Source: an uncultured Dehalococcoidales bacterium (GTDB taxonomy: Bacteria > Chloroflexota > Dehalococcoidia > Dehalococcoidales > UBA5627). Taken from it: a stretch of 57,575 nt of DNA. This document shows, piece after piece, positions 23,444 to 57,428 of this stretch. The notes beneath the pieces are model-generated. The model did no database searches and was not told the origin of the DNA. It saw nothing but the letters and a program-made list of their open reading frames with translations. Within the stretch, counting starts at the first letter, position 1. Each line of letters begins with the position of its first letter. The translations under genes were made by a program, and so were the position numbers. Where the stretch lies: positions 1 through 57,575 of the forward strand of contig CAZJVO010000001.1 in assembly GCA_964549815.1 (NCBI GenBank). The letters are read 5' to 3'.

Positions 23444-24202
23444 CTAGTGGCCGTATGGGCAAATCCGGTCTATCCCGGTAATAGCACAGACTGCCGCACC
23501 CGTTATGCCGAAAAGCACCAGTTTTTTGCCGTTTTTGTTTACTCTGGCATTGATATCGTCGAACGAACCGTTGGCAATGGTGCTTCCCGTCGCCAATATT
23601 ACATCGCACCAGTCTATTAATTCCCGCGTCTGCGTTTTTCCGTCCCAGATAATAACACCGGCTTTATTCTGTCCGATATTCTTGGGGTTCATATCGGTAC
23701 AATGAACATTATCTGCTCCGAAAGCCTCTACAAGACTCTCCAGTATTGCCGGTTGCAAACCTATCATTCCTATTTTTACATCGCCGTACTTTTCCCTGAT
23801 TTCATCAGCGATTATGCTGCCACATTTTGCCGGCTCTTCGTCGCGGCAGTGTTTTACTCCCGAAGCAATTCCCAGATGCGATGCGATAGCGTTCAGGGTG
23901 GCTACCATAATAGCTCGATTACTATTGGTATCCAGATTGAAAGACAATATGTCTTCTATGGTTCCTTCGAATTCTTTAGGGCTGTCGGTAAAGGCTTGTC
24001 CGAAGCCACCCCCGAACTGTGCCTGTATCATAACTTCTCTGCCTTCAAGAATGGCATAATCTTTCCTTTCAGTGTTACCGATAGCCTGCAAAGGGGATAA
24101 AGCTCCCACGGTAACTTTAACAGGCTGCCCCTCCGCCTTGTTTTCTTTTACCAGTTCTATCAGCTTGTTCCTGACGATTTGAATCGATGTTAATTCTGTC
24201 AT
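23444..24202 (-). CDS. DUF364-like Rossmann-domain protein (divergent paralog of 50365..51192)
   Basis: The C-terminal half IGMIGLQP...CDVILATGSTIANGSFDDI...LVLFGITGAAV resembles the DUF364 pattern (TGxTxxNxT...GP). Immediately downstream of modA on the same strand. Confidence 0.55.
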   Translation of the reverse strand: MTELTSIQIVRNKLIELVKENKAEGQPVKVTVGALSPLQAIGNTERKDYAILEGREVMIQAQFGGGFGQAFTDSPKEFEGTIEDILSFNLDTNSNRAIMVATLNAIASHLGIASGVKHCRDEEPAKCGSIIADEIREKYGDVKIGMIGLQPAILESLVEAFGADNVHCTDMNPKNIGQNKAGVIIWDGKTQTRELIDWCDVILATGSTIANGSFDDINARVNKNGKKLVLFGITGAAVCAITGIDRICPYGH

Positions 24203-24310
24203 AATTCTGATTTCCCTCTTTTCCTTGTTCTAATTTTTTGTGAGTCTTACTAATTATTTGCTTATGATATATCAACTTTATAAAAAATCCACCTTGGTAA
24301 TATCAAAAAG

Positions 24311-25090
24311 TTATTCACTCTTAACGCTGAAACCGTATGATTCGAATATGTCTATTACCTCTGGGCTGATCAGAAAATCCAGGTAATCGCGGGCAGCTTC
24401 GGCGTTTTCAGATGCGCTGACTATAGCCGTCGGATAGGTTATCTTTGAATTTATTTCAGCGGGGGCAGAAGCCACGGTCATAACCTTATCTGATGTCAGC
24501 GCATCGGTTGAATATACGATACCAGCAACAATATTTCCTGTTTCGACGTAGGCTAATACTTCGCGTACCGTGCTCCCCAAAAGAAGTTTGTCTGCCATAT
24601 CATCACTGATTTCGAGGAGTTCAAAAAGCATCTGGGCATACTCTCCTGCCGGAACAAAAGATGGGTCTCCGATTGCCACAAGTTTGATATTATCGTTTGT
24701 AAGGTCCGTAAAATCAGCAATGTTTTGGGGATTATCGGGGGCGACGATTAAAACCAGGTTGTTTGTAAGAAAATCCCGACGTGTTTCAGATAGAATCATC
24801 CCTTGCTGCTGGAGTGAGTCCATTTGCTTGACTCCTGGTGAAATGAAGATATCACAGATAGCTCCGTTCTCAATCTGCGTTTTTAATGTTCCCGCTGCAG
24901 CGTAATTTGCCTGTATGGTAACATTTGAATTCTGTTCCATATAAAGAGCGTTGATTTCATCAATAACATCTATCATGCCTGCTCCAGCGAATACTGTCAG
25001 CGTGACAGGTTTTTCCTTGCATCCTGGAAGAATGCCGAGGACAAGAGATAGGATTACCAGCGGAATAATTTTTAACAGCGCGTTTTTCAA
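24311..25090 (-). CDS. modA: Molybdate/tungstate ABC transporter substrate-binding lipoprotein ModA
   Basis: TTG start. Lipobox LGILPGC. LTVFAGAGMIDVIDEI...ANYAAAGTLKTQIENGAICDIFISPG...YPTAIV is the typical ModA pattern. Confidence 0.82.
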   Translation of the reverse strand: MKNALLKIIPLVILSLVLGILPGCKEKPVTLTVFAGAGMIDVIDEINALYMEQNSNVTIQANYAAAGTLKTQIENGAICDIFISPGVKQMDSLQQQGMILSETRRDFLTNNLVLIVAPDNPQNIADFTDLTNDNIKLVAIGDPSFVPAGEYAQMLFELLEISDDMADKLLLGSTVREVLAYVETGNIVAGIVYSTDALTSDKVMTVASAPAEINSKITYPTAIVSASENAEAARDYLDFLISPEVIDIFESYGFSVKSE

Positions 25091-25227
25091 TTGTTATACC
25101 CCCGTTTCTTAATAATTACAAAATATATACGTGTCTACTAGTGGCTTTAAGTGGGGAAAAGGGAAGGGGGTATATAGTGGCAACTATATCGCGGCGACTA
25201 TCGATACTTGAAATAAAAGCCGTTTCC

Positions 25228-25345
25228 ATCTGCTCTCCTTTTCCAACGGGAAGCAACACCGTTTCCGGTAATGCCGTCTAGATATTCTATCTACCGGCTG
25301 TTCGCCATGGATTGCTCTTTAGGCAAAACAGCTCCGGAGAAGTCA
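25228..25345 (-). promoter_or_regulatory. Candidate molybdenum-cofactor (Moco) riboswitch in the modA leader
   Basis: Minus strand reads CUUCUCCGGAGC-[hairpin GCUGUUUUGCC..GGCGAACAGC]-[hairpin GCCGGUAGAUAgaaUAUCUAGACGGC]-[hairpin AACGG..CCGUU]-GGAAAAGGAGAGC. The 5' UCUCC pairs with the 3' GGAGA. The multi-stem layout and 3' AAAGGAG resemble the Moco motif as I recall it. Not verified by a covariance model. Confidence 0.45.
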
Positions 25346-25565
25346 AATATTTATTTTATAGCACATACGTTATAATGGTGTCAATATAACGTTTTTGATA
25401 TTATATTCTTTTTATAAAGAAATATTAAAAGAGCCTTTTAAATATGTATTGCGTCTGAAGTTTATAAAAATTGAAATATTCAGATTATTCATTGTGATAG
25501 TATGAATATATCGCCTGTAGAAAAAAACGGGTATTCGGTATAGACTAATATATATCATAAATAAA

Positions 25566-46163: not shown

Positions 46164-46874
46164 TTGCAAATGTCTCAAGAATGCATCAGAAGACTATCGA
46201 CTTCCCCTTTGTTTCGTGATATTAAATTTGAAGAAATTGCAGATATTTTAGATTATTTGGAACCTAAGGTTAAAAAGTATAAAAAAGACGAAGTTATTAC
46301 CTTCCACGAACAATCCCGTGATGGTATCGGAATAGTTGCTAAAGGTAAAGTTGCCATTACCAGAGAATCTTCCTCAGGGAATCGTGTTATATTGGATATA
46401 ATAAGGGCTGGGGGTTTTTTAGATGAGGCAGTTGTTTTTTCTTATAGCACCAAGTTCCCGCCAACTATTGTAACTCTGGAGGACAGCTGTTTATTTTTTC
46501 TTCCTCTTGATAAACTGGTTGGCGACTGCAATAACACCAATATATGCCACAATATATTAATGTCGAATCTACTGAAAATATTTTCCAATTATACGTCATT
46601 GCTGAATAAAAAAATTGACTATTTATCCATAAAGAATATCAGGGAAAAGCTGAGCATTTACTTGATGGACCTGTATCGGAGGACAGGCAGTCCCAATTTA
46701 ATAATACCGATGAAAAGACATGAACTCGCTGATTACTTAAATATTTCCCGGCCAGCACTTTCACGAGAAATGAGCTTGATGCGTAATGAAAATATAATAG
46801 ATTTTAATGGTCGGTCAATTATAATTAAAGATATTAATTCCCTTGAGAAGTTCTCTAATGTTAGTGTAGCTTAA
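46164..46874 (+). CDS. Crp/Fnr family transcriptional regulator
   Basis: cNMP-binding-like N-terminal domain (LFRDIKFEEI...GKVAITRESSSGNRVILDII) and C-terminal HTH (MKRHELADYLNISRPALSREMSLMRNENII). No N-terminal Fnr-type Cys cluster. Confidence 0.85.
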   Translation: MQMSQECIRRLSTSPLFRDIKFEEIADILDYLEPKVKKYKKDEVITFHEQSRDGIGIVAKGKVAITRESSSGNRVILDIIRAGGFLDEAVVFSYSTKFPPTIVTLEDSCLFFLPLDKLVGDCNNTNICHNILMSNLLKIFSNYTSLLNKKIDYLSIKNIREKLSIYLMDLYRRTGSPNLIIPMKRHELADYLNISRPALSREMSLMRNENIIDFNGRSIIIKDINSLEKFSNVSVA

Positions 46875-47007
46875 GTAAGCCCTGTATCAAGGTGCATCTC
46901 AATTATACCAGGTTATCGGAATTGATTAGCTCCATCAATGTAATTTTGCCGCAAATACTCGCTTATATACGATTATTTCCGGGGTAAGTGGTCTTAGAAA
47001 AAATATA

Positions 47008-47037
47008 TTAAATCGGTAATAATTATTACCGATTTAA
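47008..47037. promoter_or_regulatory. Perfect 30-bp palindrome TTAAATCGGTAATAATTATTACCGATTTAA
   Basis: Verified base by base. The core GTAAT-N4-ATTAC has the 5-N4-5 geometry of Crp/Fnr-family boxes. It could alternatively be an AT-rich terminator hairpin of the crp gene. Confidence 0.5.
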
Positions 47038-47038
47038 A

Positions 47039-47060
47039 TTTATCAATGCGCTATATTAAT
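47039..47060 (+). promoter_or_regulatory. Second copy of the 22-nt motif, upstream of the ABC operon
   Basis: 17/22 identical to 46042-46063 (shared CAAnGCGCTATATyAAT). Confidence 0.45.
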
Positions 47061-47225
47061 TCAGATATAGACATAACAATCCTGTCTTTATTTATTGTTA
47101 AAATAAATTTGATTAAATAAGGAGGTGTTTAATTAATAAATTTAGTTTTTCCGGGCAAATATTCATTTGACGTACTCAGCTATTATTTTACATAGCAATA
47201 TATCAAATAAAATATATAGCATTAA

Positions 47226-48314
47226 TTGATTGGTTTCTGGATGATGACCATAAAGAATATTCAAAAAATATGTGCCGATAAACTCAGTTGTATAAATCTT
47301 AAAAGCGAAAACGGATTTTGGTTAAAAGTACTGATATTATCTGTTTTGTTAGTTGCTCTGTTTTTGGGGTCTTTTCTGGTCGGAAGATACGATATATCCA
47401 TAAAGACGATTATCGACATTTTCGCTTCGAATATTTTCCCTGTTGAGCAGTACTGGGAGGACACCTTGGCGATGGTGGTTCAGCAGGTACGGTTTCCCAG
47501 GATAGTCCTGGCAATTCTTATCGGTGGTGCCCTTTCCGTTTCAGGTGCTTCTTACCAGACTCTTTTCAAGAATCCGATGGTTTCACCGGATATACTTGGG
47601 GTTTCAGCTGGCGCCGGTTTCGGTGCTGCCTTGGCTATGATAAACGGGGCAAACTGGGTTGGAATACAAGGTTCTGCCTTTGTATTCGGTCTTGCGGCGG
47701 TTATCATTGCCTTCACGATTGCTCAGGTATTCGGCGGTAGGTCATTTACGGTTCTGATACTCGGCGGTATCGTGGTTGGCAGTTTTTTTCAGGCACTTTT
47801 ATCTATCATCAAAACCCTTGCAGATACGGAAAACGAGTTGCCGGCAATTACATTCTGGCTGATGGGGAGCCTCAGCAGGGGTGATAATGATGATATTCTC
47901 ATAATGCTCCCAGCATTACTCATATCTCTGTTTCTGCTTTTTCTGTTCCGCCACCATATAAACGCACTGTCCGCGGGAGAGGACGTAGCACAAACTATGG
48001 GTGTCAATGTGACTCTGGTGAAGACAGTTATTGTTACAAGCTCTACCTTGATGACGGTCGCCTCCGTAGCTGTCTGCGGTATTATCGGCTGGATAGGGTT
48101 GGTTATTCCCCATTTCGCTCGCATGCTGGTTGGTGCCAGCTATTCGAAAATAGCAGTGGTTTCTTTTCTGCTGGGCGGTTTTTTCCTTCTGGGCATTGAT
48201 GATATCATCCGCGGAGTTGAGGGGGTAGAAGTACCGCTGGGAGTGCTTACTGCTCTTATAGGGACTCCTGTGTTCGCTTTTCTCCTTACCAAGTTAAGAA
48301 GAGGGTGGAATTGA
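47226..48314 (+). CDS. FecCD/BtuC family (iron-chelate/cobalamin type) ABC transporter permease
   Basis: LFLGSFLVGRYDIS, RFPRIVLAILIGGALSVSGASYQTLFKNPMVSPDILGVSAGAG, GIIGWIGLVIPH. The ATG at 47241 is an alternative start. Confidence 0.88.
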   Translation: MIGFWMMTIKNIQKICADKLSCINLKSENGFWLKVLILSVLLVALFLGSFLVGRYDISIKTIIDIFASNIFPVEQYWEDTLAMVVQQVRFPRIVLAILIGGALSVSGASYQTLFKNPMVSPDILGVSAGAGFGAALAMINGANWVGIQGSAFVFGLAAVIIAFTIAQVFGGRSFTVLILGGIVVGSFFQALLSIIKTLADTENELPAITFWLMGSLSRGDNDDILIMLPALLISLFLLFLFRHHINALSAGEDVAQTMGVNVTLVKTVIVTSSTLMTVASVAVCGIIGWIGLVIPHFARMLVGASYSKIAVVSFLLGGFFLLGIDDIIRGVEGVEVPLGVLTALIGTPVFAFLLTKLRRGWN

Positions 48315-49129
48315 TGTTAAAGGTTGAAAATCTGAAGTTTTATTACAGCAAGGAACATATAGTAATAAAAGACATTTCTTTTGCATTGAATGAGCATGAT
48401 GTGCTTTGCCTGCTGGGTCCTAACGGAACCGGCAAGACAACTCTTCTTCGTTGTTTGCTGGCGCTCAATAAACCTGTAGCCGGAACGGTTCAAATCGATG
48501 GTTTCAATATAACCAGAACTACCTCTCGAAAGTTGGCGAAATACCTGGCTTATGTTCCGCAGGCATCTTCAATGGCTTTTCCTTATGAGGCAGAAGAAAT
48601 TGTACTTATGGGCCGTATCGCTCATTTGAATCTGGGAGCCAGCCCTACCAGGAAAGACAGGGAAATATGTTGTGAGGCAATGGAATGCCTTGGGATATCA
48701 CATTTAAGAACGAAATCATTCAATAAGATGAGTGGTGGTGAGCGGCAGATGGTGCTGGTTGCCAGAGCGATGGCTCAGCAAGCGAAAATTCTTATTATGG
48801 ATGAGCCTACTGCCAATCTCGACTACAGCAATCAGGTAAAAATCCTTCAAATCATTAATCAACTGTCTGAACAGGGATATTCGATATTGATGACCTCACA
48901 TTTCCCTGACCATGCCTTCCTGGCATGTAACCGGGTAATACTGATGAAAGATGGCGTGGTTATGGCATGCGGGACACCAGATAACGTGGTTACTTCCGAT
49001 AGCCTTTCTAATCTATATCAGACACAGGTATGTGTTACCGAGGCAACTCTTTATCCGGGAGATACCAGAACAAAGGTATGCATTCCGATAATGAAAAAAA
49101 ATTCAATATTAAAAAAGGAGAACAATTAA
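48305..49129 (+). CDS. ABC transporter ATP-binding protein (FepC/BtuD type)
   Basis: GPNGTGKTTLLR, MSGGERQMV, ILIMDEPTANLD. Confidence 0.9.
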   Translation: MELMLKVENLKFYYSKEHIVIKDISFALNEHDVLCLLGPNGTGKTTLLRCLLALNKPVAGTVQIDGFNITRTTSRKLAKYLAYVPQASSMAFPYEAEEIVLMGRIAHLNLGASPTRKDREICCEAMECLGISHLRTKSFNKMSGGERQMVLVARAMAQQAKILIMDEPTANLDYSNQVKILQIINQLSEQGYSILMTSHFPDHAFLACNRVILMKDGVVMACGTPDNVVTSDSLSNLYQTQVCVTEATLYPGDTRTKVCIPIMKKNSILKKENN

Positions 49130-50338
49130 ATGCAAAAAGAACAAAAGGACAGGTCGATAAAACTATCAAGGAGGGATTTTATAGCCGGAACGGGAGCGGC
49201 CATTTTACTGGGCGTATTGGGTGGATGCAAGCCCGAAACTATCACATCTACAGTTACTTCTACCAAAACAGCAACACAGGTTAACACGAGTACCGTTTCG
49301 AACGTCTCAACCGTAACTGAGACCATTATCTCCAATATCACCAGTACAAATACCGTTACCAGTACGGTCACTGAAACCGTAACGCCGGCTTCATCGTTTA
49401 CCGTAACCGATATGGCGGGACGCACAGTCGAAATTCCGGCTGTCATTAATAAAATTGCCACATTCGGCTCCATTGGTGTTTTGAATGCTATGGTTGAGAC
49501 TATAGGGTGTGGGTCTAAAATTGCCAACCAGATGTCTGCCAGCTTTACCAAGACGGATAAATGGAAATACCAGTATGTTTTCGCCCCGCAGGTTGCCGAT
49601 GGTCCCGTGCTGGAAGTGGGTGGGGAAATAGACATTGAAGCCGTCCTCCAGCTCGACCCTGATGTTTGCCTGTGTATGACTGAGGCAACGGCAGCTCTTC
49701 TTGAAGAAAAAGGGCTGGCTGTTGTTTATCTTGAATGGCAAACCCTCGATGATGTCGAACCGTGTATCACCTTGCTGGGAGAGATTTTCAGCAAGCAGGA
49801 TATAGCAGCTGATTATATCGAGTACTTTAATAATAAAGTCGCTGAAGCCGAGTCGCTTACTGCAGGGCTTGCCGACGAGGACAAAAAGACAGTCCTGTAT
49901 GGCAACATCACAACTTACACTCAGCCTCATGCTATCGCCGAATGGTGGATTGCCGAAGCAGGTGGTATCAGCGTGACTAATACCGGACGAGATCTGGAAG
50001 CTGTTGCCAGTTATACTTATACGCTTGAAGACCTGCTTTTATGGAATCCCGATGTAATGGTAACTACTGCAAATACGATGGCAGCTGAACTATTGGCAAT
50101 GGATACCCTGAAAAGTATTAATGCTATCAAGAATAACGAAATATATTATATTCCCACCGTAGCGCATGTATGGGGCAATCGTACACCAGAACAGCCACTG
50201 ACAGTATTCTGGATGATGAATAAGCTTTACCCTGATATTATGCCGGTTGATACTCTAAAAGAAGAAATACGCTATTTTTACAGCCATTTCTTCCTTACCA
50301 ATCTGACGGATGAACAACTGATCGAAATTATTGGCTAG
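49130..50338 (+). CDS. Class III (BtuF/FecB-like) substrate-binding lipoprotein, Tat signal, Thr/Ser/Val-rich linker (SBP1)
   Basis: SRRDFIAGTGAAILLGVLGGC (twin-Arg plus lipobox). About 50-aa T/S/V linker. Then FTVTDMAGRTVEIPAVINKIATF...DPDVCL..., typical of periplasmic binding protein family 2. Confidence 0.85.
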   Translation: MQKEQKDRSIKLSRRDFIAGTGAAILLGVLGGCKPETITSTVTSTKTATQVNTSTVSNVSTVTETIISNITSTNTVTSTVTETVTPASSFTVTDMAGRTVEIPAVINKIATFGSIGVLNAMVETIGCGSKIANQMSASFTKTDKWKYQYVFAPQVADGPVLEVGGEIDIEAVLQLDPDVCLCMTEATAALLEEKGLAVVYLEWQTLDDVEPCITLLGEIFSKQDIAADYIEYFNNKVAEAESLTAGLADEDKKTVLYGNITTYTQPHAIAEWWIAEAGGISVTNTGRDLEAVASYTYTLEDLLLWNPDVMVTTANTMAAELLAMDTLKSINAIKNNEIYYIPTVAHVWGNRTPEQPLTVFWMMNKLYPDIMPVDTLKEEIRYFYSHFFLTNLTDEQLIEIIG

Positions 50339-50364
50339 CAGAAGAAAATTATAAGGAGAAAAAA

Positions 50365-51192
50365 GTGGGGAATCCGATACTTATCGATACTATTGAGCAT
50401 GTGAACAGAATTCTGGGAAAGAGCATAGATAATTTGACAGTCGAGCGAGCTGTATTCGGATTGTTCTTCTCCGGGGTTAAATTGAGTGATGGCAACGGCG
50501 GGCTTTGCTTTACCCCTATAAAAGAGATTCCTGAAGCGGTTTGCTGTCCCAGTTCGGCAAAGGCGATGCCACTTTCCGGGAAACTGGCAGGCAGGAGTGT
50601 CAAGGCATATCTGGATGACATATTCGGAGAAAACATACTGAAAAAGACGCTTGGCATTGCTGTATTGAACGCTTTAAGCGCATCGTGCTGGAACATGATG
50701 CCAAATAAGGGTTATGAAATCCAATCCGGCAAGGATGCCTTCGATGACATCGAAATTCTGCCCGGTATTAAATCTGTGGTGGTCGGCGCGCTGGTCCCCA
50801 TAATCAGGAAGCTTATTGCTGCCAAGTCCGATTTCCGCATTCTCGAAATGGATTCATCTACGCTGAAAGAGAAGGAGTTGCCTTATTTTGCCGAAGCAGG
50901 CAGGGCACAGGAATTCGTCCCCGGCGCCGATTTACTGGTTATTACAGGAACGACAGTGCTCAACGACACACTTCCTGGGTTGCTCGAGATGGCAAAACCG
51001 GGGGCGCAAATCATCGTAACCGGCCCTACAGCCAGTATGCTGCCGGAAGCCTTTTTCTGCCGGGGTGTGACGACTCTGGGAGGCATCGTGGTTACCAAAC
51101 CCGACGAATTACTGGATATTATCAGCGAAGGCGGCTCTGGTTATCACTTCTTTGGGAAAAGCGCCGAAAGAACCATTATCAATCGAAAATAA
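50365..51192 (+). CDS. DUF4213/DUF364 protein (putative heavy-metal chelation Rossmann-like family)
   Basis: GVKLSDGNGGLCFT...VVGALVPIIRKL...ADLLVITGTTVLNDTLPGLLEM...IIVTGPTASMLPEAFFCRGVTTLGGIVV...ISEGGSG. Confidence 0.8.
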   Translation: MGNPILIDTIEHVNRILGKSIDNLTVERAVFGLFFSGVKLSDGNGGLCFTPIKEIPEAVCCPSSAKAMPLSGKLAGRSVKAYLDDIFGENILKKTLGIAVLNALSASCWNMMPNKGYEIQSGKDAFDDIEILPGIKSVVVGALVPIIRKLIAAKSDFRILEMDSSTLKEKELPYFAEAGRAQEFVPGADLLVITGTTVLNDTLPGLLEMAKPGAQIIVTGPTASMLPEAFFCRGVTTLGGIVVTKPDELLDIISEGGSGYHFFGKSAERTIINRK

Positions 51193-51207
51193 TAAATATC
51201 GAGGAGG

Positions 51208-52479
51208 ATGGAATTTATGGAAAATTATCAGGAAGCTCTGGAAAAAGTATTGCAGTATATTCATATACTGGATATCGAAGAGAAACCACTTTTCGATACT
51301 ATCGGGCAGGTCCTTGTTGAAGATGTATATTCGGAATTTGATTTGCCGCTTAAAGACCAGGCCATGCCGGATGGCTATGCTGTAAGGTCTGCAGATATAA
51401 CATATGCCAGTGATAAAAATCCGGTCAGCCTGTGTATTATCGAGACGGTGAGGGCAGGTTATCTGCCTAAAAACAGGATAAAAAGCGGGACTGCAATCCG
51501 CATCATGACCGGCGCTGTTATGCCAGAGGGGGCCGATTGTGTTGTCAGGTTTGAATTTACTGATGAGCCCGGTAACAAAAGCGGGCCGAACTACAACAAT
51601 CCGACAGAAGTTAAGGTATATAGGGCAGTCGATTCGGGAACAGGTATATCCAGGAAGGGGATGAGCGTCAAGAAAGGAATGCTGGTTTTATCTAAAGGGG
51701 TAACGATAGGCCCTGCCCAGATTTCCGTATTGGCGACAATCGGGAAAACCATGGTGAAGGTTATCCGCCGCCCGGTTATAGCGGTGATTTCTTCTGGGGA
51801 CGAACTAATCGAACTGGGGCAACCCCTGTCACCAGGCAAATCCTACAACTGTAATGAGATGGCAATTGCCTCCTTGGTCTCCCATTACGGCGGTATCCCG
51901 AAGGTATTGGGCATTGCCAGTGATAGCGAGAAATCGGTTAGCGATAAAATCAAAAGGGGAATGAGAGCAGATGCCATTATTACCAGTGGCGGCGTTTCTA
52001 AAGGTGATTTCGACCTTGTTCGCAGTGTGTTAAATAAGCTGGGGGAAGTGGTCTTTACGAGGGTCGAAGTAGGGCCTGGCGCCTCTGTATCTTTCGGATA
52101 TGTAATTAAAGAAGATGAAAAACGGAGAGGTTCAACTATTCCGGTGTTTGCCCTTGCAGGCCCTCCCGCAGGGTGCTTAATTAATTTCGAAATGCTTGTC
52201 AGACCATCGATATTCAAGATGATGGGGAAGAACAATATAGAACATACTATGATAGAGGCGGTCGCAAAGGATGTTGCACCTGCAAAAATGCCAATGACCT
52301 TTGCCAGATGGTCGAGATTGGAAAAAGAAAATGGGGATTACAGCGTCGAGATAAGCAGAGTCGAAACTTCAGGTGCGCTAGCTGCTATAGGGTCTGCCAA
52401 CGCTCTTACTTTCATTCCGAAGGGAACGGTGATTAACAGGGGGGATAGAATTCCCGTATTACCACTTGATTGGTCATAA
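51208..52479 (+). CDS. moeA: Molybdopterin molybdotransferase MoeA
   Basis: YQEALEKVL..., IRIMTGAVMPEGADCVV, VIAVISSGDEL, AIITSGGVSKGDFDLV, GLPGNP-equivalent ALAGPPAGCL. 423 aa. Confidence 0.88.
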   Translation: MEFMENYQEALEKVLQYIHILDIEEKPLFDTIGQVLVEDVYSEFDLPLKDQAMPDGYAVRSADITYASDKNPVSLCIIETVRAGYLPKNRIKSGTAIRIMTGAVMPEGADCVVRFEFTDEPGNKSGPNYNNPTEVKVYRAVDSGTGISRKGMSVKKGMLVLSKGVTIGPAQISVLATIGKTMVKVIRRPVIAVISSGDELIELGQPLSPGKSYNCNEMAIASLVSHYGGIPKVLGIASDSEKSVSDKIKRGMRADAIITSGGVSKGDFDLVRSVLNKLGEVVFTRVEVGPGASVSFGYVIKEDEKRRGSTIPVFALAGPPAGCLINFEMLVRPSIFKMMGKNNIEHTMIEAVAKDVAPAKMPMTFARWSRLEKENGDYSVEISRVETSGALAAIGSANALTFIPKGTVINRGDRIPVLPLDWS

Positions 52480-52522
52480 AAAATTATTCCTGTAGTTAGA
52501 AAATTAAAAAGAGGAGTTTAGA

Positions 52523-53590
52523 ATGAATAAAAGTCAGCAATCATTAATGGAGCTATCATTTCCGGCTGGAATGGATAAAATTGAAAAGGTGACCGAAGGT
52601 TACCAGGTCTTTCAGACGTTATCAGCTGCTATTAATCTGGGGTTGTTCGATTATTTAGCCAGAGAAGGTGCCAGTGACCGGAAGGTAATTGCTGAGGGCA
52701 TCGGAATCAACGGCATGTTCTCCAGGTGTTTTCTGGACACGCTGGTCGAAATCGGATTGCTCTCTAAACAGGATGAGAATTACAGCAATAGCGCTTTAGC
52801 AAATGATTTTTTGGTTAGCAGCAGCCCGTTTTACCATGGGGATTGGGTAAGGAATATTGGCCGCGGTAATCATTGGGGCAATCTGGAGGAGTCGTTAAAG
52901 CGTGAAAAGCCGGAGATAAGGAATACGGGCAGCGGTCCGGGCGAATCTTTTTTAAGTGCACTGGCGGAAACTTCGTTAAGAGGGGAACTACAGGCGGTAA
53001 CCCAAGCTATCGCCGGGTGGAGCGGTTTCGCAAAAGCAAAATCGCTTTTAGACCTCGGTGGTGGGCATGGTTTATATGCCATTGCGCTCTGTCAGGCTAA
53101 TCCGAATCTGACAGGCATAGTGTTTGATAAACCTGAGGTAACGAAAACAACACAAAAATATATTGAAAAATATCAGATGGTGGGGCACGTATCCACGCAG
53201 GGTGGGGATATTTGTACCGACAGTTTCGGGGTGGGTTTCGATATCGTTATTGTTTCACATCTGTTATACAAATTCCGTAAAGAACTGGAGCCGTTTTTCG
53301 ACAAGGTCTACAAAGCACTGAATCCGGGTGGATTGCTGGTTACCAATCACTGGTTCTGCGCTTCCGGATGTACTGCCGAAGGCAGCAGTGTTAAAGAACT
53401 GGCAAAATCGCTGCAGAGCTTCGGACATCCGCTGTGCCATATCGAAGACTTTTACAGGATTTTCGAGAATAAAGGCTTTAAGATAATCGTAAAAGCGGAT
53501 ATTCCGAGTTCTCATGGTACATCATTCCTGCAATTATCGGTTAAAGAATCCACACGTAAGGGAACCGAAGCACATTCGTGTTGCTGTTAA
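52523..53590 (+). CDS. SAM-dependent O-methyltransferase family 2-like protein (N-terminal winged-helix dimerisation domain), Cys-rich C-terminus
   Basis: SAM motif I LLDLGGGHGLYAIAL, acidic loop VFDKPEV, post-I DIVIVSHLLYKF. Ends ...GTEAHSCCC. Confidence 0.8.
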   Translation: MNKSQQSLMELSFPAGMDKIEKVTEGYQVFQTLSAAINLGLFDYLAREGASDRKVIAEGIGINGMFSRCFLDTLVEIGLLSKQDENYSNSALANDFLVSSSPFYHGDWVRNIGRGNHWGNLEESLKREKPEIRNTGSGPGESFLSALAETSLRGELQAVTQAIAGWSGFAKAKSLLDLGGGHGLYAIALCQANPNLTGIVFDKPEVTKTTQKYIEKYQMVGHVSTQGGDICTDSFGVGFDIVIVSHLLYKFRKELEPFFDKVYKALNPGGLLVTNHWFCASGCTAEGSSVKELAKSLQSFGHPLCHIEDFYRIFENKGFKIIVKADIPSSHGTSFLQLSVKESTRKGTEAHSCCC

Positions 53591-53700
53591 TTCGATAATT
53601 ATTAGTAAAAAACTAATCATTAAGGGGAAAAGAGGTATTTTCTTATAAAAAATATTTATCGCAAAGCTGTTAGTTAATTCATGGATTTAAGGAGTAAAAA

Positions 53701-54870
53701 ATGGAAGAAAAAAAGAAATCGATAGTCTCACGCAGAACTTTTATTGCAGGGTCGGGCGCGTTGCTCTTGTCTGCTTTACTTGGCGGATGCAAGCAGGAGA
53801 CCCTTACTTCTACCGTTACGTCTACTAAAACCAGCACATTACTCAATACCATTACCAATGTCTTGACTACGACCGAAACGGTAACGGTTACCGAGGCTGC
53901 ATCTCAACCGGCAACCAGGGTAATTACAGATATGGCGGGGAACCATGTTACCGTTCCCTACGAAATTAACAGAATTGTGATTACCTGTTACGGCGGAGCC
54001 ACCCATGAAGTTGCAGCAATGGGTGCCGCATCCAAAATAGTGGCACAACCTAATATGAATACATTTCCGGCATTTTTAAGAATGTACCCCGAATTTAGTG
54101 AAATTCCTTTTGTCGGCTCGTTTTCCGATGTGAACATCGAGGAGTTGCTGGAATTAAATCCGGATGTGGTTATCGCCAGTATGACCAGCATGCAGATGAA
54201 TCATGAAATTGCCGAAGTCGGGGTTCCGGTAATCTCGATTTATACATCAATGTACAGTGTTGCCACCGACCTTGAGAAAGAATTCAGCATGATGGGGCAG
54301 TTACTCAATAATACCGAAAAATCGGATGAGTTAAATAATTTCTGGAATCAACAACTGCAGGTAATTGACGAGCATTTACAGAATATCTCTGTTGAAGACC
54401 GGAAAAAAGTTTACTATTCCATCGGCCCTTTGACTCGTACTACCGGCAACACGTTATGGGGGCATGCCTTGATTACTGCAGCGGGCGGAATAAATGTCGG
54501 GGAACAACTTGAAGGAACTCTGAATATTGATGCCGAGCAAATAATTGAATGGAATCCGGATGTAATAATAATCAGGAGAGGGTCTGGTACTGGTTTGGTC
54601 AATATCAGCGATTTTACAGATAATGTCCAGATGCAAGGTATAAACGCAGTAAAAAATAACCAGGTATACGGTTGTCCCATCGGCAGTTTCTGGTGGGATT
54701 GTCCTGCTCCCGAGATGATTCTGGGAATAGTATGGCTGGCAAAAACACTCTATCCTGAACAACTGGCAGATATCGAACTTGAAGCCCTGACTAAAAGTTT
54801 TTACAGGCAATTCTATGACTATGAACTGACTACTGAGGAGTTCGAGGGGTTTTTGTCACAGGATTCATAA
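53701..54870 (+). CDS. Class III substrate-binding lipoprotein, Tat signal, T/S/V linker (SBP2)
   Basis: SRRTFIAGSGALLLSALLGGC. RVITDMAGNHVTVPYEINRIVITCYGGATHEVAAMGAASKIVAQP. Paralog of SBP3. Confidence 0.85.
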   Translation: MEEKKKSIVSRRTFIAGSGALLLSALLGGCKQETLTSTVTSTKTSTLLNTITNVLTTTETVTVTEAASQPATRVITDMAGNHVTVPYEINRIVITCYGGATHEVAAMGAASKIVAQPNMNTFPAFLRMYPEFSEIPFVGSFSDVNIEELLELNPDVVIASMTSMQMNHEIAEVGVPVISIYTSMYSVATDLEKEFSMMGQLLNNTEKSDELNNFWNQQLQVIDEHLQNISVEDRKKVYYSIGPLTRTTGNTLWGHALITAAGGINVGEQLEGTLNIDAEQIIEWNPDVIIIRRGSGTGLVNISDFTDNVQMQGINAVKNNQVYGCPIGSFWWDCPAPEMILGIVWLAKTLYPEQLADIELEALTKSFYRQFYDYELTTEEFEGFLSQDS

Positions 54871-54936
54871 AGAGTTAAATATCTTTTTTTAATAAATAAG
54901 CCGTTAGTTAATTTTATAGATTTAAGGAGTAAAAAA

Positions 54937-56148
54937 ATGGAAGAAAAAAAGAAATTGATAATCTCACGTAGAACTTTTATTGCAGGGTCGGGCGCGATGT
55001 TCTTGACTGCTTTACTTGGCGGGTGCAAGCCGGAGACCCTTACTTCTACCGTTACGTCTACTAAAACCTCGACCTTGTTAAGCACGATTACAAATGCTTT
55101 AACTGCCACTGAAACGGCAACGGAAACAAATCTTGTAACAAACACCAAAACGGTAACAGCTACGGCTACCATTACCGAGACCGTCACGCAACCTTCAACT
55201 AAAGTCATTACCGATATGGGGGATATACGGGTTACCGTACCTTATGAGATAAACAGGATAGTCGTAACATGTATGGGTGGGGCTACTCACGAGGTAGCTG
55301 CCATTGGCGGTGCTTCTAAAATTGTTGCTCAACCATCCATGCAAAAATTTCCTGTTCTTCTGAAAATTTATCCTGATTTTATAAATCTGCCGACTGTCGG
55401 TACGTTCAACAATATCAATATCGAAGAGATTCTAACCCTGGAACCCGATGTGGTAATCAACAGTAAAACATCGACGGAAGGCAACCAGGATATAACGAAC
55501 GTGGGGGTTCCCGTAATCAGAGTCAATACCGGACGAAGCGATATAACCGGTATTTTAGATGAATTCGCGATGACAGGGGAATTGTTGAATAATACACAGA
55601 GGTCAGACGCTCTGATAGCTTTTTGGAGTGAGCAATTAGATATTATCGAAGAACGTCTACAGAATATCCCTGTTGAAAACAGGAAAAAGGTGTACTATGT
55701 TCTGGGTGCGATAACTCATACCAACGGCAGTGAGGCATGGGGACAGACGCTGATTACAACAGCAGGCGGTATCAATGTGGCGGAGGAAATCAGGGCTGAA
55801 AGTGATATCGTTCTCGAACAATTGCTGGCATGGAATCCCGATGTAATGATACTCAGCAGTAATGAGGGAACATTCGTAAGTGTCGAGGATGTTACCGGTA
55901 ATGCTCAGTTACGGAATATAAAAGCTGTGGAAGATAGGGAGCTCTATCTTTGCCCATTGGGTACTTTCTGGTGGGACCGTCCTGCGCCCGAAGCAATTCT
56001 GGGTATTACCTGGCTGGCAAAAACCCTGTATCCCGAACAGTTTACAGATGTCGACCTGAAAGCTTTGTCGAAGGATTTCTATAACAGGTTTTACGATTAT
56101 GAGCTGAGCGATGATGAATTTGACGCATTTTTAAATCCTACGGCATGA
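54937..56148 (+). CDS. Class III substrate-binding lipoprotein, Tat signal, longer T/S/V linker (SBP3)
   Basis: SRRTFIAGSGAMFLTALLGGC. KVITDMGDIRVTVPYEINRIVVTCMGGATHEVAAIGGASKIVAQP. Confidence 0.85.
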   Translation: MEEKKKLIISRRTFIAGSGAMFLTALLGGCKPETLTSTVTSTKTSTLLSTITNALTATETATETNLVTNTKTVTATATITETVTQPSTKVITDMGDIRVTVPYEINRIVVTCMGGATHEVAAIGGASKIVAQPSMQKFPVLLKIYPDFINLPTVGTFNNINIEEILTLEPDVVINSKTSTEGNQDITNVGVPVIRVNTGRSDITGILDEFAMTGELLNNTQRSDALIAFWSEQLDIIEERLQNIPVENRKKVYYVLGAITHTNGSEAWGQTLITTAGGINVAEEIRAESDIVLEQLLAWNPDVMILSSNEGTFVSVEDVTGNAQLRNIKAVEDRELYLCPLGTFWWDRPAPEAILGITWLAKTLYPEQFTDVDLKALSKDFYNRFYDYELSDDEFDAFLNPTA

Positions 56149-56157
56149 TAAAAAACA

Positions 56158-56186
56158 GGGGCGGGGAGTTGAATCCTCCCCGCCCC
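56158..56186 (+). terminator. Strong intrinsic terminator ending the ABC/SBP operon
   Basis: GGGGCGGGGAG-TTGAATC-CTCCCCGCCCC followed by a T-rich stretch (ttaataactgagttttttattttt). Confidence 0.8.
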
Positions 56187-56341
56187 TTAATAACTGAGTT
56201 TTTTATTTTTCTGTCCACAACCACGCCGGTTCCGTAGGCGATAAACTCGGCTGCATTCTGCATCACCATCGCCGTTCCGAATCTCATATCGGTAATAGCC
56301 TTTGACAACTATTGTCTCCGTCACAATCAATTCGGTAGCTA

Positions 56342-56530
56342 TCAAGAATTTTCATCAGCATCTTTTTTCCTGGCTTTCTTTTTGCGTTCGTTAACCGCAT
56401 TCTGCAATATCAGCTCTATTTGTCCGTTGACACTGCGGAACTCCTGGGCTGCCCATTCATTCAGGTTCTCCCATAGTTCTTCATCTATGCGCAGCAGATA
56501 ACTCTTGCGCCCCCCTTTTTTCTTTTGCAT
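56342..56530 (-). CDS. Arc/MetJ-type ribbon-helix-helix small DNA-binding protein
   Basis: KSYLLRIDEELWENLNEWAAQEFRSVNGQIELILQNAV is a typical RHH pattern. Lys-rich tail. Confidence 0.65.
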   Translation of the reverse strand: MQKKKGGRKSYLLRIDEELWENLNEWAAQEFRSVNGQIELILQNAVNERKKKARKKDADENS

Positions 56531-56549
56531 GGGTAGCCTTTCCCTTTAT

Positions 56550-57428
56550 CTATTGATAGAGTGTCCCCGCATTGATAACAGGCGTGGTCGAGGATTCACT
56601 GCATAGAACTACCAGGAGGTTGGATACCATGACCGCCTTGCGCTCTTCATCCAGTTCGACCAGATGTTTATCAGCCAGTTGATTCAGAGCCATTTCCACC
56701 ATGCTGACGGCGCCGTGAACTATCTGGCTTCTGGCGGCAACCACTGCCGATGCCTGTTGGCGGCGCAGCATCGCTTCAGCAATTTCCGGAGCATAAGCTA
56801 AATGGCTGAGCCTTGCTTCGATAACATGTACGCCTGCCCTATCCAGCCTTTCCTGTAGTTCGGCTTCGAGCATCTGGCTGATTTTGTCGGTGCTGGAACG
56901 CAGGGTTAATTGTTCCTGCCCCATATCTTCAAAGGAGTCATAGGGATAAGATTGAGCCAGGTGGCGTACAGACGCCTCACTCTGGATGATAACATACTGT
57001 TCGTAGTTATCGACATCGAAGAATGCCTTGAAGGTATCATCCACTTTCCAGACGATTACGGCGGCGATCTCGATAGGGTTCCCGATCTTATCGTTGACCT
57101 TTAGCTTCTGTCCACTCAGGTTGCGTGCCCTTAAACTGATTTTTTTCTTGATGAAAAACGGGTTTGCCCAGAAAAAACCATTCTGCCTGACTGTGCCGGC
57201 ATATTTCCCAAAGAGCACCATAACCTTAGCTTCATTGGGATTAACGATAAATAAGCCAGGAAACACCAGAATTGAATCCGCGATTATTAGTACAACCGCG
57301 AGGATGGTCATCCATGCATCGCTTCCATCTGCATTCAAGATGAACAAGACAATAGCTGCAGCCAGCAGAATAAGCCCGACGGCCAGCATAAAAAAACCAT
57401 TATAAACCTTTGTAACCTTTTCTGACAT
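56550..57428 (-). CDS. SPFH/Band 7 domain membrane protein
   Basis: Two N-terminal TMs, then [26 protein letters not shown]...[11 protein letters not shown]...coiled-coil [17 protein letters not shown]. Confidence 0.8.

Follow-up and report, generated by a model that had tools for sequence, protein, structure and literature searches.

A probable molybdenum/tungsten acquisition and cofactor-loading operon with a MolBC-type importer in an anaerobic Dehalococcoidales bacterium

Nine genes on the + strand of the window (the whole 57,575-nt stretch that was analysed, from a bacterium of the UBA5627 lineage) probably form a dedicated operon for molybdenum or tungsten acquisition and cofactor loading in an anaerobic member of the Dehalococcoidales, with an importer of the MolBC type. 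They encode, in order, a Crp/Fnr-family regulator, a permease, an ATPase, a receptor (SBP1), a DUF4213/DUF364 protein of the subfamily that we call DUF364a, a MoeA-family metal insertase, a SAM-dependent methyltransferase and two further receptors (SBP2 and SBP3). This interpretation keeps the core of one of two proposals made in a sequence-only reading of the DNA, that of a Mo/W importer feeding MoeA, and is supported by the MolB and MolA homologies, by riboswitches at related loci and by the adjacency of MoeA.

Operon layout and candidate operator

All nine ORFs were verified in the window, and the gene string, coordinates and domains of the sequence-only reading were borne out by this check and by Pfam. 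Gaps between the genes of the string at 47226-56148 range from -10 to 110 nt, which fits a single transcript. The regulator gene ahead of the string (46164..46874, + strand; Pfam cNMP_binding 50.3 bits, HTH_Crp_2 52.3 bits) is AT-rich, as had been noted (G+C 0.34-0.35); across this gene and the 351-nt spacer the G+C content is 30-35%, versus 42-50% in the operon. The regulator sequence has no FNR-type N-terminal Cys cluster; its GDCNNTNIC motif recurs in a Dehalococcoidales ortholog. An ortholog with 67% identity adjoins the module in L002, the closest relative (Dehalococcoidales), and more distant Crp-like genes lie beside DUF364a in L042, L053, L054, L057 and L080.

Upstream of the permease gene, the sequence itself shows a perfect 30-bp palindrome, TTAAATCGGTAATAATTATTACCGATTTAA (47008..47037), with the core TCGGTAAT-N4-ATTACCGA (8-N4-8). 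No second copy occurs in the window, where 0 matches are expected by chance at three or fewer mismatches. In L002 the same palindrome arms, separated by another 4-nt spacer, are found ~150 nt 5′ of the permease gene in surrounding DNA that has diverged; the palindrome was not found upstream in L003. The palindrome is a candidate operator for the adjacent Crp/Fnr-family regulator, which would act on this core and, at this operon, would take the place of the Moco/tungsten-cofactor riboswitch that fills the role elsewhere.

Downstream of the last gene, and between convergent genes, is a G+C-rich hairpin (56157..56187; 12-bp stem with 10 G-C pairs). It scores as a minus-strand terminator, with a T-run facing the convergent genes at 56342-57428, and the + strand T-run begins ~12 nt past the stem. 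Because the + strand T-run is offset and that of the minus side is canonical, the hairpin may serve as a bidirectional terminator. The strong terminator previously placed at 56158-56186 is thus retained as a hairpin, but not as a clean, operon-specific terminator.

The importer and its receptors

The permease (47226..48314, + strand; Pfam FecCD 282.7 bits) belongs to the type II FecCD/BtuC-fold importers and is closest to MolB (HI1471) of the Haemophilus molybdate/tungstate importer, its best solved relative (2NQ2, 211.9 bits, versus 164.8 for FhuB, 136.6 for HmuU and 116.4 for BtuC). The ATPase gene (48305..49129, + strand; Pfam ABC_tran 107.3 bits) overlaps the permease gene by 10 nt, and the nearest NCBIfam models are heme, corrinoid and FecE-type ATPases, each under its cut-off. 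MolBC-A of Haemophilus influenzae consists of a FecCD-type permease with a class III receptor and imports molybdate and tungstate (PMC4031551, PMC4245157), which contradicts the earlier premise that free oxyanions are outside the range of class III receptors paired with FecCD permeases. Since MolBC-A carries molybdate and tungstate, the chelate or pterin substrate that had been proposed for the present importer is possible, but not required.

A tentative alternative, to which we give a minor share of our confidence, is that Mo or W is taken up as a small chelate (e.g., a catecholate-type “molybdophore/tungstophore”) or as a thiometalate, by a metallophore-type pathway and not an oxyanion pump. 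The ligand would afterwards be altered or removed by DUF364a and the methyltransferase, which would make the metal available to MoeA. The nearness of the permease to MolB, whose narrow pathway is suited to a small anion (PMC4245157), speaks against a chelate, while the presence of several alternative receptors for one permease, as in siderophore systems, speaks for it.

The receptors are Tat-signal lipoproteins encoded on the + strand: SBP1 (class III; 49130..50338; Peripla_BP_2 66.2 bits), SBP2 (SBP3 type; 53701..54870; 98.7 bits) and SBP3 (54937..56148; 99.9 bits). All three carry an SRR(D/T)FIAG twin-arginine motif and an LGGC lipobox, and their linkers are 40-53% Ser/Thr. They are indeed three paralogs, as had been claimed, but at unequal distances (58% identity for SBP2-SBP3, 32% for SBP1-SBP3 and 30% for SBP1-SBP2). 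SBP2 and SBP3 are the nearest of the three to MolA. SBP2 matches MolA with 107 bits, and SBP3 matches 4OVK with 140.3 bits and MolA (3PSA/3PSH) with 117.2 bits (E 7e-33), so that in the suggested comparison with BtuF (~26 bits) MolA clearly scores higher. SBP1 is no more than a distant relative of MolA (about 36-38 bits; 37.8 bits against the solved structures, where 4OVK scores 81.6 bits).

Foldseek with the AF2 model of SBP3 (pLDDT >90 in the folded domain) returned 4OVK first, MolA second (E 1.6e-24, TM 0.82) and YiuA next. YiuA, solved with Fe-catecholate fragments (Fe-DHB-Arg-Ser), and Helicobacter pylori CeuE (Ni-His2) are structurally nearly as near to the model as MolA, and in the alignment MolA has other residues at the invariant loop positions of the SBP3 type (C112, E119 and FWWDR). 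The distance of SBP1 from MolA, these loop differences and the closeness of YiuA and CeuE all count against a Mo/W operon, and the latter two neighbors favor a chelate.

Receptor homologs carry generic iron or hemin labels in public annotation, such as “iron complex transport system substrate-binding protein”, iron-chelate systems dominate the FecCD and Peripla_BP_2 families, and YiuA is a close structural neighbor. We nevertheless consider it very improbable that the importer is of the usual iron-chelate or heme kind and that DUF364, MoeA and the methyltransferase are merely inserted neighbors. The NCBIfam iron, heme and siderophore models all score under their cut-offs, and the adjacency of DUF364a, methyltransferase and MoeA to this importer type is kept across four phyla, far more commonly than would be predicted from a gene family with only a few copies in each genome. 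Moco riboswitch control, in place of a Fur-type control, would also go unexplained.

DUF364a, the methyltransferase and the MoeA variant

DUF364a (50365..51192, + strand; DUF4213 74.3 bits, DUF364 135.8 bits) carries an invariant AVCCPSSA(K/R)AMP loop together with the motif GSGYHF(F/Y)G. The homologs number 3617, with relatives from other phyla at 63-89% identity, and the subfamily spans four phyla at 53-89% identity. The AF2 model has a mean pLDDT of 87.5, falling to <50 in the Cys-Cys loop (residues 55-69), and its best Foldseek matches are the DUF364 structures 3NPG and 3L5O (TM 0.70-0.80). DUF364 was already connected with ABC transporters for metals in 2010 (PMC2954201), and work on Methanococcus made the same connection (bioRxiv 10.1101/2024.03.05.583561), so the suggestion that the arrangement is not a described system needs narrowing: it stands for the full module of DUF364a, methyltransferase, MoeA and MolBC-type importer, of which no description was found in the literature. 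Only one DUF364 enzyme has been characterised, and it cyclises SAM in natural-product biosynthesis and does not handle metal (PMC12930334); this counts against a Mo/W operon and, as work on a SAM derivative, in favor of ligand chemistry on a chelate.

The methyltransferase (52523..53590, + strand; Dimerisation 46.6 bits, Methyltransf_2 51.5 bits) ends in a Cys-rich tail (...HSCCC). No NCBIfam model reaches its cut-off, the best being BchU (43.6 versus a cut-off of 276). Of the 455 family members, the top 120 include 83 with two or more Cys within the last 12 residues. In all six distant genomes checked (Moorella and five diderm), the family lies beside DUF364a and FecCD importers; DUF364a orthologs with 53-57% identity adjoin the methyltransferase in Moorella, Desulfosarcina and Pseudodesulfovibrio. 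The two proteins are widely conserved partners, whose Cys-Cys loop and poly-Cys tail would suit a thiophilic Mo or W species such as the chelate or thiometalate alternative supposes.

The second earlier proposal, corrinoid or benzimidazole salvage and remodelling with a BzaC-like methyltransferase, retains almost no probability. Dehalococcoidia depend on corrinoid salvage, and BtuC and BtuF models match weakly, below threshold; MolB and MolA, however, outrank BtuC and BtuF by ~90-95 bits. Neither the window nor the 34 related loci searched yielded a cobalamin riboswitch; they yielded Moco riboswitches instead. The Moorella homolog (48% identity) lies inside a Moco-riboswitch operon, no bza or cob genes were found near the methyltransferase family in the six distant genomes (within 8 kb in Moorella), and in the five genomes other than Moorella the family is likewise tied to DUF364a.

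The MoeA variant (51208..52479, + strand) has all three Pfam regions (MoeA_N 131, MoCF_biosynth 75.5 and MoeA_C 31.1 bits), and among solved structures it scores highest with Pyrococcus horikoshii MoeA (1UZ5, 197.5 bits, versus 145 for E. coli MoeA). It retains D59, T100, E188, D228, D259, R350 and S371, with GPGAS where the KPGKP motif stands (K279→G, K282→A) and the further substitutions R137→S and D142→S. K279 is missing in all DUF364a-linked MoeA proteins, which may thus lack canonical activity. In 27 of 80 loci, DUF364a has a MoeA-family gene next to it. The module of L002 comes without MoeA; this absence and the loss of K279 count against a Mo/W operon.

Conservation across phyla and the proposed route

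The FecCD permease, ATPase, SBP1-type and SBP3-type receptors, DUF364a, methyltransferase and MoeA variant recur in Chloroflexota, Bacillota, Desulfobacterota and Thiobacillus, with the gene set also found in Desulfosarcina and Pseudodesulfovibrio. The orders are TonB-dependent receptor (TBDT)-SBP3type-MoeA (437 bits)-methyltransferase-DUF364a in Desulfobulbus and SBP3type-methyltransferase-SBP1type-methyltransferase-DUF364a in Thiobacillus. SBP3-type orthologs (240-384 bits) are adjacent to or near the methyltransferase in Moorella, Desulfosarcina, Pseudodesulfovibrio, Thiobacillus, Desulfobulbus and L088. SBP1-type receptors occur in 27 related loci (365-735 bits; one at a contig end, 266 bits) and accompany DUF364a in Clostridia, Actinomycetota and Synergistota. 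Of the 43 DUF364a loci flanked by 5 kb or more on both sides, 25 have a co-directional FecCD permease and receptor and 17 a MoeA-family gene; a riboswitch and a Crp-like gene each occur in 6/43. XdhC_C and MoaF are also among the neighbors. Transporter, MoeA and riboswitch are all absent nearby in 15/43, which counts against the Mo/W reading.

At 10 related loci a Moco/tungsten-cofactor riboswitch (RF01055) stands immediately 5′ of the homologous module. It is directly upstream and co-directional in the P3-lacking form in L004, L005, L006, L012, L015 and L018, and in the P3-containing form in L034 and L054; it also heads the Moorella thermoacetica operon (DUF364 paralog-FecCD-ABC-SBP3type-methyltransferase-DUF364a-SBP). 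Rfam places one further riboswitch in each of L006 and L034. The motif has been tied to Moco/Tuco genes and its P3-lacking form to tungsten (Regulski 2008, PMC2408646). A Moco riboswitch was not found at the nine-gene operon itself, which again counts against the Mo/W reading.

A functionally related unit lies elsewhere in the window (23444..25351, - strand). It comprises a P3-containing Moco riboswitch (25220-25351; RF01055 57.8 bits, P3 stem visible in the alignment), modA (24311-25090; TIGR01256 171.5 bits, cut-off 62.5) and a second, divergent DUF364 paralog (23444-24202; DUF364 47.1 bits). This arrangement supports the Mo/W reading and resembles a modABC-DUF364 operon in Methanococcus maripaludis that shows cofitness with nifH (bioRxiv 10.1101/2024.03.05.583561).

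TonB-dependent receptors and/or TonB-ExbBD are present in 4/5 diderm loci. They are more typical for chelates than for free oxyanions and so count against the oxyanion form of the Mo/W reading, although free metal ions are also carried by TonB-dependent receptors. The chelate or thiometalate alternative draws further on the conserved SAM-dependent enzymes of the clusters (the methyltransferase, UbiE-like methyltransferases and radical SAM proteins) and on the predominance of anaerobes among the carriers of the module. Mo is present as thiomolybdate where anaerobes live, and alternative Mo transporters are expected (PMC11484787). Against it, the clusters have no recurring exporter, NRPS or NIS synthetase, no molybdophore is known among anaerobes, and ligand chemistry is not readable from sequences.

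It is unlikely that the substrate is instead molybdopterin, cPMP or a Moco-like compound shed by neighbors in anoxic communities, with DUF364a (which has a nucleotide-binding Rossmann-like domain) activating the compound and MoeA inserting or re-inserting the metal. Moco riboswitch control is equally compatible with such salvage, MoeA lies inside the operon, the invariant aromatic FWWDR loop could stack on a planar ring, diderm versions have TonB-dependent receptors, and Dehalococcoidia salvage many cofactors. No bacterial Moco or MPT importer is known, however, and the ligands of the nearest characterised relatives are an oxyanion or small metal complexes rather than pterins. Moorella carries the module and, we assume, full Moco biosynthesis; the module of L002 lacks MoeA; and the role of the methyltransferase would be unaccounted for.

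For the Mo/W operon, the proposed route would begin with capture of the metal species outside the cell by the three Tat-exported lipoproteins (one SBP1-type and two MolA-related SBP3-type), most simply as molybdate or tungstate or a similarly small form. All three would hand over to the one type II importer of the MolBC type, DUF364a and the Cys-tailed methyltransferase would process or convert the imported species in the cytoplasm, and the co-encoded MoeA variant would ligate the metal to molybdopterin. No function is known for the DUF364 protein or the methyltransferase, and the cluster therefore suggests an overlooked way for anaerobes to obtain Mo/W.

The gene string and its importer

The operon consists of nine co-directional open reading frames on the forward strand, at exactly the positions proposed in the sequence-only reading, and every domain called there is matched by Pfam. 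It opens with a Crp/Fnr regulator (46164-46874; cNMP-binding-like sensor, 50.3 bits, and C-terminal HTH, 52.3 bits), followed by a FecCD permease (47226-48314), an ABC ATPase (48305-49129) and the first of three Peripla_BP_2 receptor lipoproteins, SBP1 (49130-50338). Next come a DUF4213/DUF364 protein (50365-51192; 135.8 and 74.3 bits for PF04016 and PF13938), a MoeA with three regions that all score above gathering thresholds (51208-52479; MoeA_N 131, MoCF_biosynth 75.5 and MoeA_C 31.1 bits), and a methyltransferase with Dimerisation and Methyltransf_2 domains (52523-53590). The string is completed by the remaining receptors, SBP2 (53701-54870) and SBP3 (54937-56148). For none of the nine does a curated NCBIfam equivalog reach its cut-off, so the set holds no recognised named protein. 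Between the genes of the string, gaps range from -10 to 110 nt, with the 110-nt gap separating the methyltransferase gene from SBP2. The G+C content is 30-35% in the regulator gene and the 351-nt spacer, and 42-50% in the downstream operon. The nearest relatives of the window are Dehalococcoidales metagenome-assembled genomes. The hairpin at 56157-56187, which had been taken for the operon's own terminator, does have the features of a terminator but is not specific to the operon, as its canonical T-run lies on the minus-strand side, towards the convergent genes, and the T-run of the plus strand is offset. It is best read as a shared terminator, possibly bidirectional.

When compared with all solved structures, the permease scores highest against HI1471 (MolB; 211.9 bits), ahead of FhuB (164.8), HmuU (136.6) and BtuC (116.4). 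SBP3 is closest to 4OVK, an uncharacterised Veillonella receptor (140 bits), and then to MolA (HI_1472; 117.2 bits, E 7e-33), with BtuF and heme receptors at about 26-35 bits (BtuF about 26). SBP2 behaves like SBP3 (107 bits against MolA), the two sharing 58% identity. SBP1, with about 30% identity to each of them, is more remote, matching 4OVK with 82 bits and MolA weakly, with about 36-38 bits. The AlphaFold model of SBP3, in which the folded domain has pLDDT values above 90, gives the same ranking in Foldseek, with 4OVK first and MolA second (E 1.6e-24, TM 0.82). These are followed by YiuA, a binder of Fe-catecholate fragments (9HRJ, 9HRP, 9IF3 and 9HT5, according to the Foldseek descriptions), and, lower in the ranking, by Helicobacter pylori CeuE, which binds Ni-His2. 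In the pairwise alignment with MolA, loop motifs differ, with GGATHE and FWWDR standing where MolA has HQTLN and AKAWGY, respectively, and a G-S pair in a C-lobe loop occurs in both.

Judged by sequence and by the SBP3 model, the nearest characterised system to this importer is a Mo/W importer. MolBC-A is a type II, FecCD-fold system that imports molybdate and tungstate (PMC4031551, PMC4245157), so the earlier premise that FecCD systems carry no free oxyanions is incorrect. The window operon resembles MolBC-A of Haemophilus influenzae (HI1470-HI1472) in combining a FecCD-fold permease and an ATPase with a Peripla_BP_2 receptor, and MolA is the best functionally characterised match of SBP2 and SBP3 by sequence and of the SBP3 model by structure. 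Both systems also have a genetic tie to molybdenum metabolism, which in Haemophilus consists of modA and modD neighbours (PMC3928620) and here of MoeA in the operon and riboswitch control in relatives. The two differ in that SBP3 is only about 27% identical to MolA, and SBP1 is barely related to it; in that three Tat-lipoprotein receptors accompany one permease; and in the embedded DUF364, Cys-tailed methyltransferase and MoeA genes, none of which is found in the Haemophilus cluster. In addition, diderm relatives of the window module include TonB-system genes.

The first 90 residues of each receptor contain a twin-arginine motif together with an LGGC lipobox and a Thr/Ser-rich tether of roughly 40-60 residues; in the SBP3 model, residues 1-74 have pLDDT values below 50, except for residues 49-51. 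Export of ABC receptors by Tat is unusual except in haloarchaea. The SBP3-type homologs that we collected (P0241-P0360) bear the public name "iron complex transport system substrate-binding protein", and one is named "Hemin-binding HmuT precursor".

Conservation and control of the module

The DUF364 protein of the operon belongs to a distinct and highly conserved subfamily that we call DUF364a, and its genomic context was counted in 43 related loci with at least 5 kb of sequence on each side, considering neighbours within 6 kb that are co-directional (except for Crp-like genes and riboswitches). A FecCD permease and receptor are found near DUF364a in 25 of the 43 loci, a MoeA-family gene in 17, a Crp-like gene in 6 and a Moco riboswitch, also, in 6. 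Permease, MoeA and riboswitch are all absent from 15 loci, and the neighbours of these "solitary" genes are housekeeping or uninformative. The methyltransferase occurs in only three loci of this set, all from Dehalococcoidales, and a search of its own recovered a family of 455 members from anaerobes. It adjoins DUF364a orthologs and FecCD/Peripla_BP_2 genes in all six of the distant genomes that we examined, namely Moorella, Desulfosarcina ovata, Pseudodesulfovibrio mercurii, a Thiobacillus MAG, a Desulfobulbus MAG and locus L088. The gene order is SBP3type-methyltransferase-SBP1type-methyltransferase-DUF364a in the Thiobacillus MAG, and TonB receptor-SBP3type-MoeA-methyltransferase-DUF364a in the Desulfobulbus MAG, where the MoeA matches that of the window with 437 bits. 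TonB-dependent receptors and/or TonB-ExbB-ExbD genes are present in four of five diderm loci. The module is spread over Chloroflexota, Bacillota, Actinomycetota, Synergistota, Desulfobacterota and Pseudomonadota, and methanogen genomes, too, encode homologs of DUF364a or of SBP3-type receptors. On this comparative sequence evidence, the gene set is a conserved module, and not a chance neighbourhood.

We also considered that the operon might be a fusion of two modules, one pairing DUF364a with SBP1-type receptors only and the other pairing the methyltransferase with a divergent DUF364 only. This idea was dropped because the DUF364 protein beside the methyltransferase in Moorella, Desulfosarcina and Pseudodesulfovibrio is a DUF364a ortholog (53-57% identity). 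In the Desulfosarcina ovata locus (L082 2350-4898, 13471-14187), two CobW/COG0523-type GTPase genes and a gene for a 620-residue radical SAM protein are interleaved with the methyltransferase, DUF364a, TonB receptor and receptor genes, a hint that metallochaperones may take part in certain versions of the module.

We searched for regulatory RNAs in 80 related loci, fetched with the window DUF364 protein, using Rfam and a covariance model of our own. The Moco riboswitch (RF01055) lies directly upstream of homologous modules in nine loci, and also upstream of a Crp-DUF364a pair, in each case co-directionally. In Syntrophomonas/Syntrophomonadaceae (L004, L005, L006, L012, L015 and L018), it precedes either a receptor-permease-ATPase-(radical SAM)-DUF364a string or DUF364a alone; in Thermacetogenium (L034), permease-ATPase-SBP1type-DUF364a; in a Clostridiales genome (L054), the Crp-like gene and DUF364a; and in Moorella thermoacetica (L081), a string of DUF364 paralog-FecCD-ABC-SBP3type-methyltransferase-DUF364a-receptor. 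In the aptamer alignment, the Syntrophomonadaceae riboswitches lack P3, and those of Thermacetogenium, the Clostridiales genome, Moorella and the window contain it. According to Regulski et al., the P3-lacking form goes with the tungsten cofactor (PMC2408646). A division in which SBP1-type receptors serve Mo and SBP3-type receptors serve W is a weak lead only, as P3-containing riboswitches precede both the SBP1-type module of L034 and the SBP3-type module of Moorella; those without P3 stand before a third type of receptor, that of Syntrophomonadaceae. Further P3-lacking Moco-type riboswitches lie downstream of modules (L006 12403-12523 and 16916-17030; L034 11946-12063), and the second of the two L006 copies is followed by another receptor-permease-ATPase set.

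Two other readings of the importer can be judged on these data. The database label implies an iron-chelate importer, which fails since both regulation and synteny contradict it. The second is corrinoid or benzimidazole salvage, as proposed in the sequence-only reading. Here the module does resemble BtuFCD in transporter architecture, and its methyltransferase belongs to the same broad superfamily as BzaC. However, no cobalamin riboswitch (RF00174) was found in the window or in 34 related loci, and no bza or cob genes lie near the methyltransferase in the six distant genomes, where the neighbours are DUF364a, FecCD, Peripla_BP_2, MoeA and TonB-system genes. The window module likewise lacks a cobalamin riboswitch and bza or cob neighbours, and the similarity to BtuFCD is lower than that to MolBC-A. 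The corrinoid reading thus fails on regulation, on synteny, and on the greater similarity to MolB/MolA than to BtuC/BtuF.

The single RF01055 match in the window is a P3-containing riboswitch at 25220-25351 (minus strand), upstream of modA (24311-25090, minus strand; TIGR01256, 171.5 bits). This gene is followed by a second, divergent DUF364 paralog, DUF364b (23444-24202, minus strand). No modB or modC gene follows the pair; what comes next is a NifU_N gene, encoded on the opposite strand. The modA-DUF364 order repeats the modABC-DUF364 arrangement of Methanococcus maripaludis, in which DUF364 is linked to modABC (bioRxiv 10.1101/2024.03.05.583561). The unit is flanked by Lactamase_B and NifU_N genes (22976-23428, 25638-26474), and genes of these two families likewise surround the Moorella module, together with a small radical SAM protein and a DUF364 paralog (L081 83-925, 1306-2043, 14016-14435); these neighbours may mark a wider conserved neighbourhood. 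Elsewhere in the window, a 5S rRNA gene stands alone between ClpB/ClpC-like and AcrB-family genes (11910-12027, minus strand; 80 bits), with no 16S or 23S rRNA reported by Rfam across the 57.6 kb. Two tandem, overlapping genes (19576-20442 and 20414-21295) code for P-loop NTPases of the CbiA/ParA type, both of which have a 4Fe-4S ferredoxin module inserted.

Upstream of the window operon itself, neither Rfam nor our Moco covariance model detects RF01055, and the 211-nt leader at 47040-47250 has no significant fold relative to shuffled sequence (z = -0.6). The spacer does contain a perfect 30-bp palindrome (47008-47037; core TCGGTAAT-N4-ATTACCGA), which occurs once in the window and whose 5-4-5-like geometry fits Crp/Fnr operators. 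In L002, a Dehalococcoidales relative that retains an ortholog of the regulator (67% identity), the same palindrome arms, with a different central spacer, are found about 150 nt upstream of the permease gene within otherwise diverged DNA. The palindrome was not found upstream of the permease gene of L003, and therefore conservation of the putative operator extends to two genomes. Cysteines occur in the regulator only at positions 7, 109, 122 and 128, and direct reading of its sequence shows that the FNR-type N-terminal [4Fe-4S] Cys cluster is absent. We infer that in this organism a Crp/Fnr-family regulator stands in for the riboswitch. About 100 nt before the permease start is a strong Shine-Dalgarno-like element, AGGAGGTG (47120-47136), which is conserved in L002 (upstream of 6771). 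A three-codon frame, GTG TTT AAT TAA, comes after it in the window.

The embedded enzymes

An exact-sequence lookup with the window DUF364 protein gave no match. The protein has relatives in Clostridia, Actinomycetota, Synergistota, Candidatus Adiutrix and Methanobrevibacter, with which it shares 63-89% identity. An AVCCPSSA(K/R)AMP loop is invariant in DUF364a, and a GSGYHF(F/Y)G motif is also common to the relatives. The AVCCPSSAKAMP loop is an insertion that is not present in the other DUF364 subfamilies compared. The model of the protein (mean pLDDT 87.5, but below 50 in the invariant Cys-Cys loop) combines an enolase-N-like with a Rossmann-like fold, both Pfam domains being present. In Foldseek, it matches two DUF364 structural-genomics entries alone, 3NPG (PH1506) and 3L5O (Dhaf4260), with TM scores of 0.70-0.80. 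These have the same two-domain fold, although DUF364a is just 19-21% identical to them. Non-DUF364 matches cover part of the Rossmann domain only, and that to CntL (probability 0.47, TM 0.23) is not meaningful. The sole characterised DUF364 enzyme, Orf5 (4-methylazetidine-carboxylate synthase), converts methylated SAM to an azetidine amino acid and MTA (PMC12930334). This SAM-cyclase activity is known for Orf5, which is not a metal-linked member, and the chemistry makes a SAM- or adenosyl-binding cleft plausible in DUF364a. In the methyltransferase family, 83 of the top 120 members have a Cys-rich C-terminal tail (CCC, CxCC and similar).

The window MoeA has in common with the MoeA, gephyrin E and Cnx1E insertases the three Pfam regions and the acidic residues D59, E188, D228 and D259. 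We compared it with E. coli MoeA at D59, T100, R137, D142, E188, D228, K279, R350 and S371, which we take to be the active-site list established from mutants (2NQK-2NRS), and in addition at D259. D59, T100, E188, D228, D259, R350 and S371 (E. coli numbering) are kept, R137 and D142 are each replaced by S and K279 by G, and GPGAS takes the place of KPGKP. K279 is absent as well from 30 of 30 other MoeA-family proteins of related loci (L001-L078), and variants at the KPGKP site beside DUF364a include GPGAS, IPGIP, GPGKH, APGRP and others. D59, D228 and D259 are kept in all of these proteins, and E188 in nearly all (one has Asp). Because E. coli MoeA is the sole canonical control, this pattern, including the loss of K279, should be considered a lead. 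The best solved relative of the window MoeA is that of Pyrococcus, a tungsten user, and the Clostridial MoeA partners score highest with the MoeA1/MoeA-PBP model PRK14498. The archaeal MoeA1/MoeA-PBP clade has been proposed to be tungsten-specific (PMC11733289), and the Clostridial partners differ from it in having no PBP domain.

Cargo of the importer and implications

We regard a link between the module and Mo/W cofactor metabolism as highly probable. The more specific scheme towards which we lean is that three surface receptors would feed small Mo/W species to one MolBC-type importer, that DUF364a and the methyltransferase would act on the imported species in the cytoplasm, and that MoeA would load the metal species onto molybdopterin. 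The main rival, which coincides with the more adventurous half of an earlier proposal (a Mo/W chelate or pterin precursor supplied to MoeA), holds that a chelate or thiometalate is the cargo, which DUF364a and the methyltransferase would unload. TonB-system genes in diderm relatives, the clustering of SAM-dependent enzymes, the structural resemblance of SBP3 to YiuA and CeuE, the cysteine-rich motifs and the mainly anaerobic distribution all speak for it, and we nevertheless consider it rather unlikely. Pterin salvage is possible, and weakly supported.

In its fullest form, the idea of a non-oxyanion cargo would make the operon a widespread, unrecognised anaerobe route for Mo/W in the form of a small organic chelate or thiometalate, which we view as doubtful. 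The cargo would cross the outer membrane of diderm bacteria through a TonB-dependent receptor, be captured by a class III receptor clade related to MolA and YiuA, and pass the inner membrane through a MolBC-like importer. It would then be chemically unloaded by two new activities, that of DUF364a (SAM-lyase-like fold, invariant Cys-Cys loop) and that of the SAM methyltransferase with its poly-Cys tail, and the metal would be passed to a MoeA variant without K279. If true, this would be the first metal-related biochemical function for the DUF364 family, and a fourth route would be added to those of Mo/W uptake.

Under the favoured scheme of small Mo/W species, the module would have the same physiological purpose as ModABC, WtpABC and TupABC, the type I molybdate/tungstate importers, which many bacteria likewise control by Moco riboswitches (PMC2408646). 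It differs from these in that their type I fold and SBP_bac_11 receptor class are unrelated to the window importer. Recent surveys of Mo/W use tally only the three classical systems (PMC13144720), and so a module of the window type goes uncounted. The module is not categorically new: one Haemophilus system is a precedent for both the importer class and its metal, and the association of DUF364 with metal ABC transporters was noted in 2010 (PMC2954201). The searchable literature yielded no account of a conserved, riboswitch-controlled module in which DUF364a is combined with a Cys-tailed methyltransferase, a MoeA without K279 and MolA-related receptors, and, in diderm bacteria, with TonB genes.

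Mod is missing from about 11% of the microbes that use Mo, and the existence of other transporters is expected (PMC11484787); if the module is a Mo/W route, it would fill part of this gap. The "iron complex transport" label of its receptors would then be a systematic misannotation. The module also gives a concrete, testable context to the large DUF364 family, with more than 4000 sequences and one characterised member, and to the 455-member family of poly-Cys-tailed methyltransferases. Two questions are thereby made testable, the role of DUF364 proteins and the acquisition of Mo/W by anaerobes. For organohalide-respiring and syntrophic communities, the module bears on the metal supply, in sulfidic habitats, to W- and Mo-dependent formate dehydrogenases and related enzymes.
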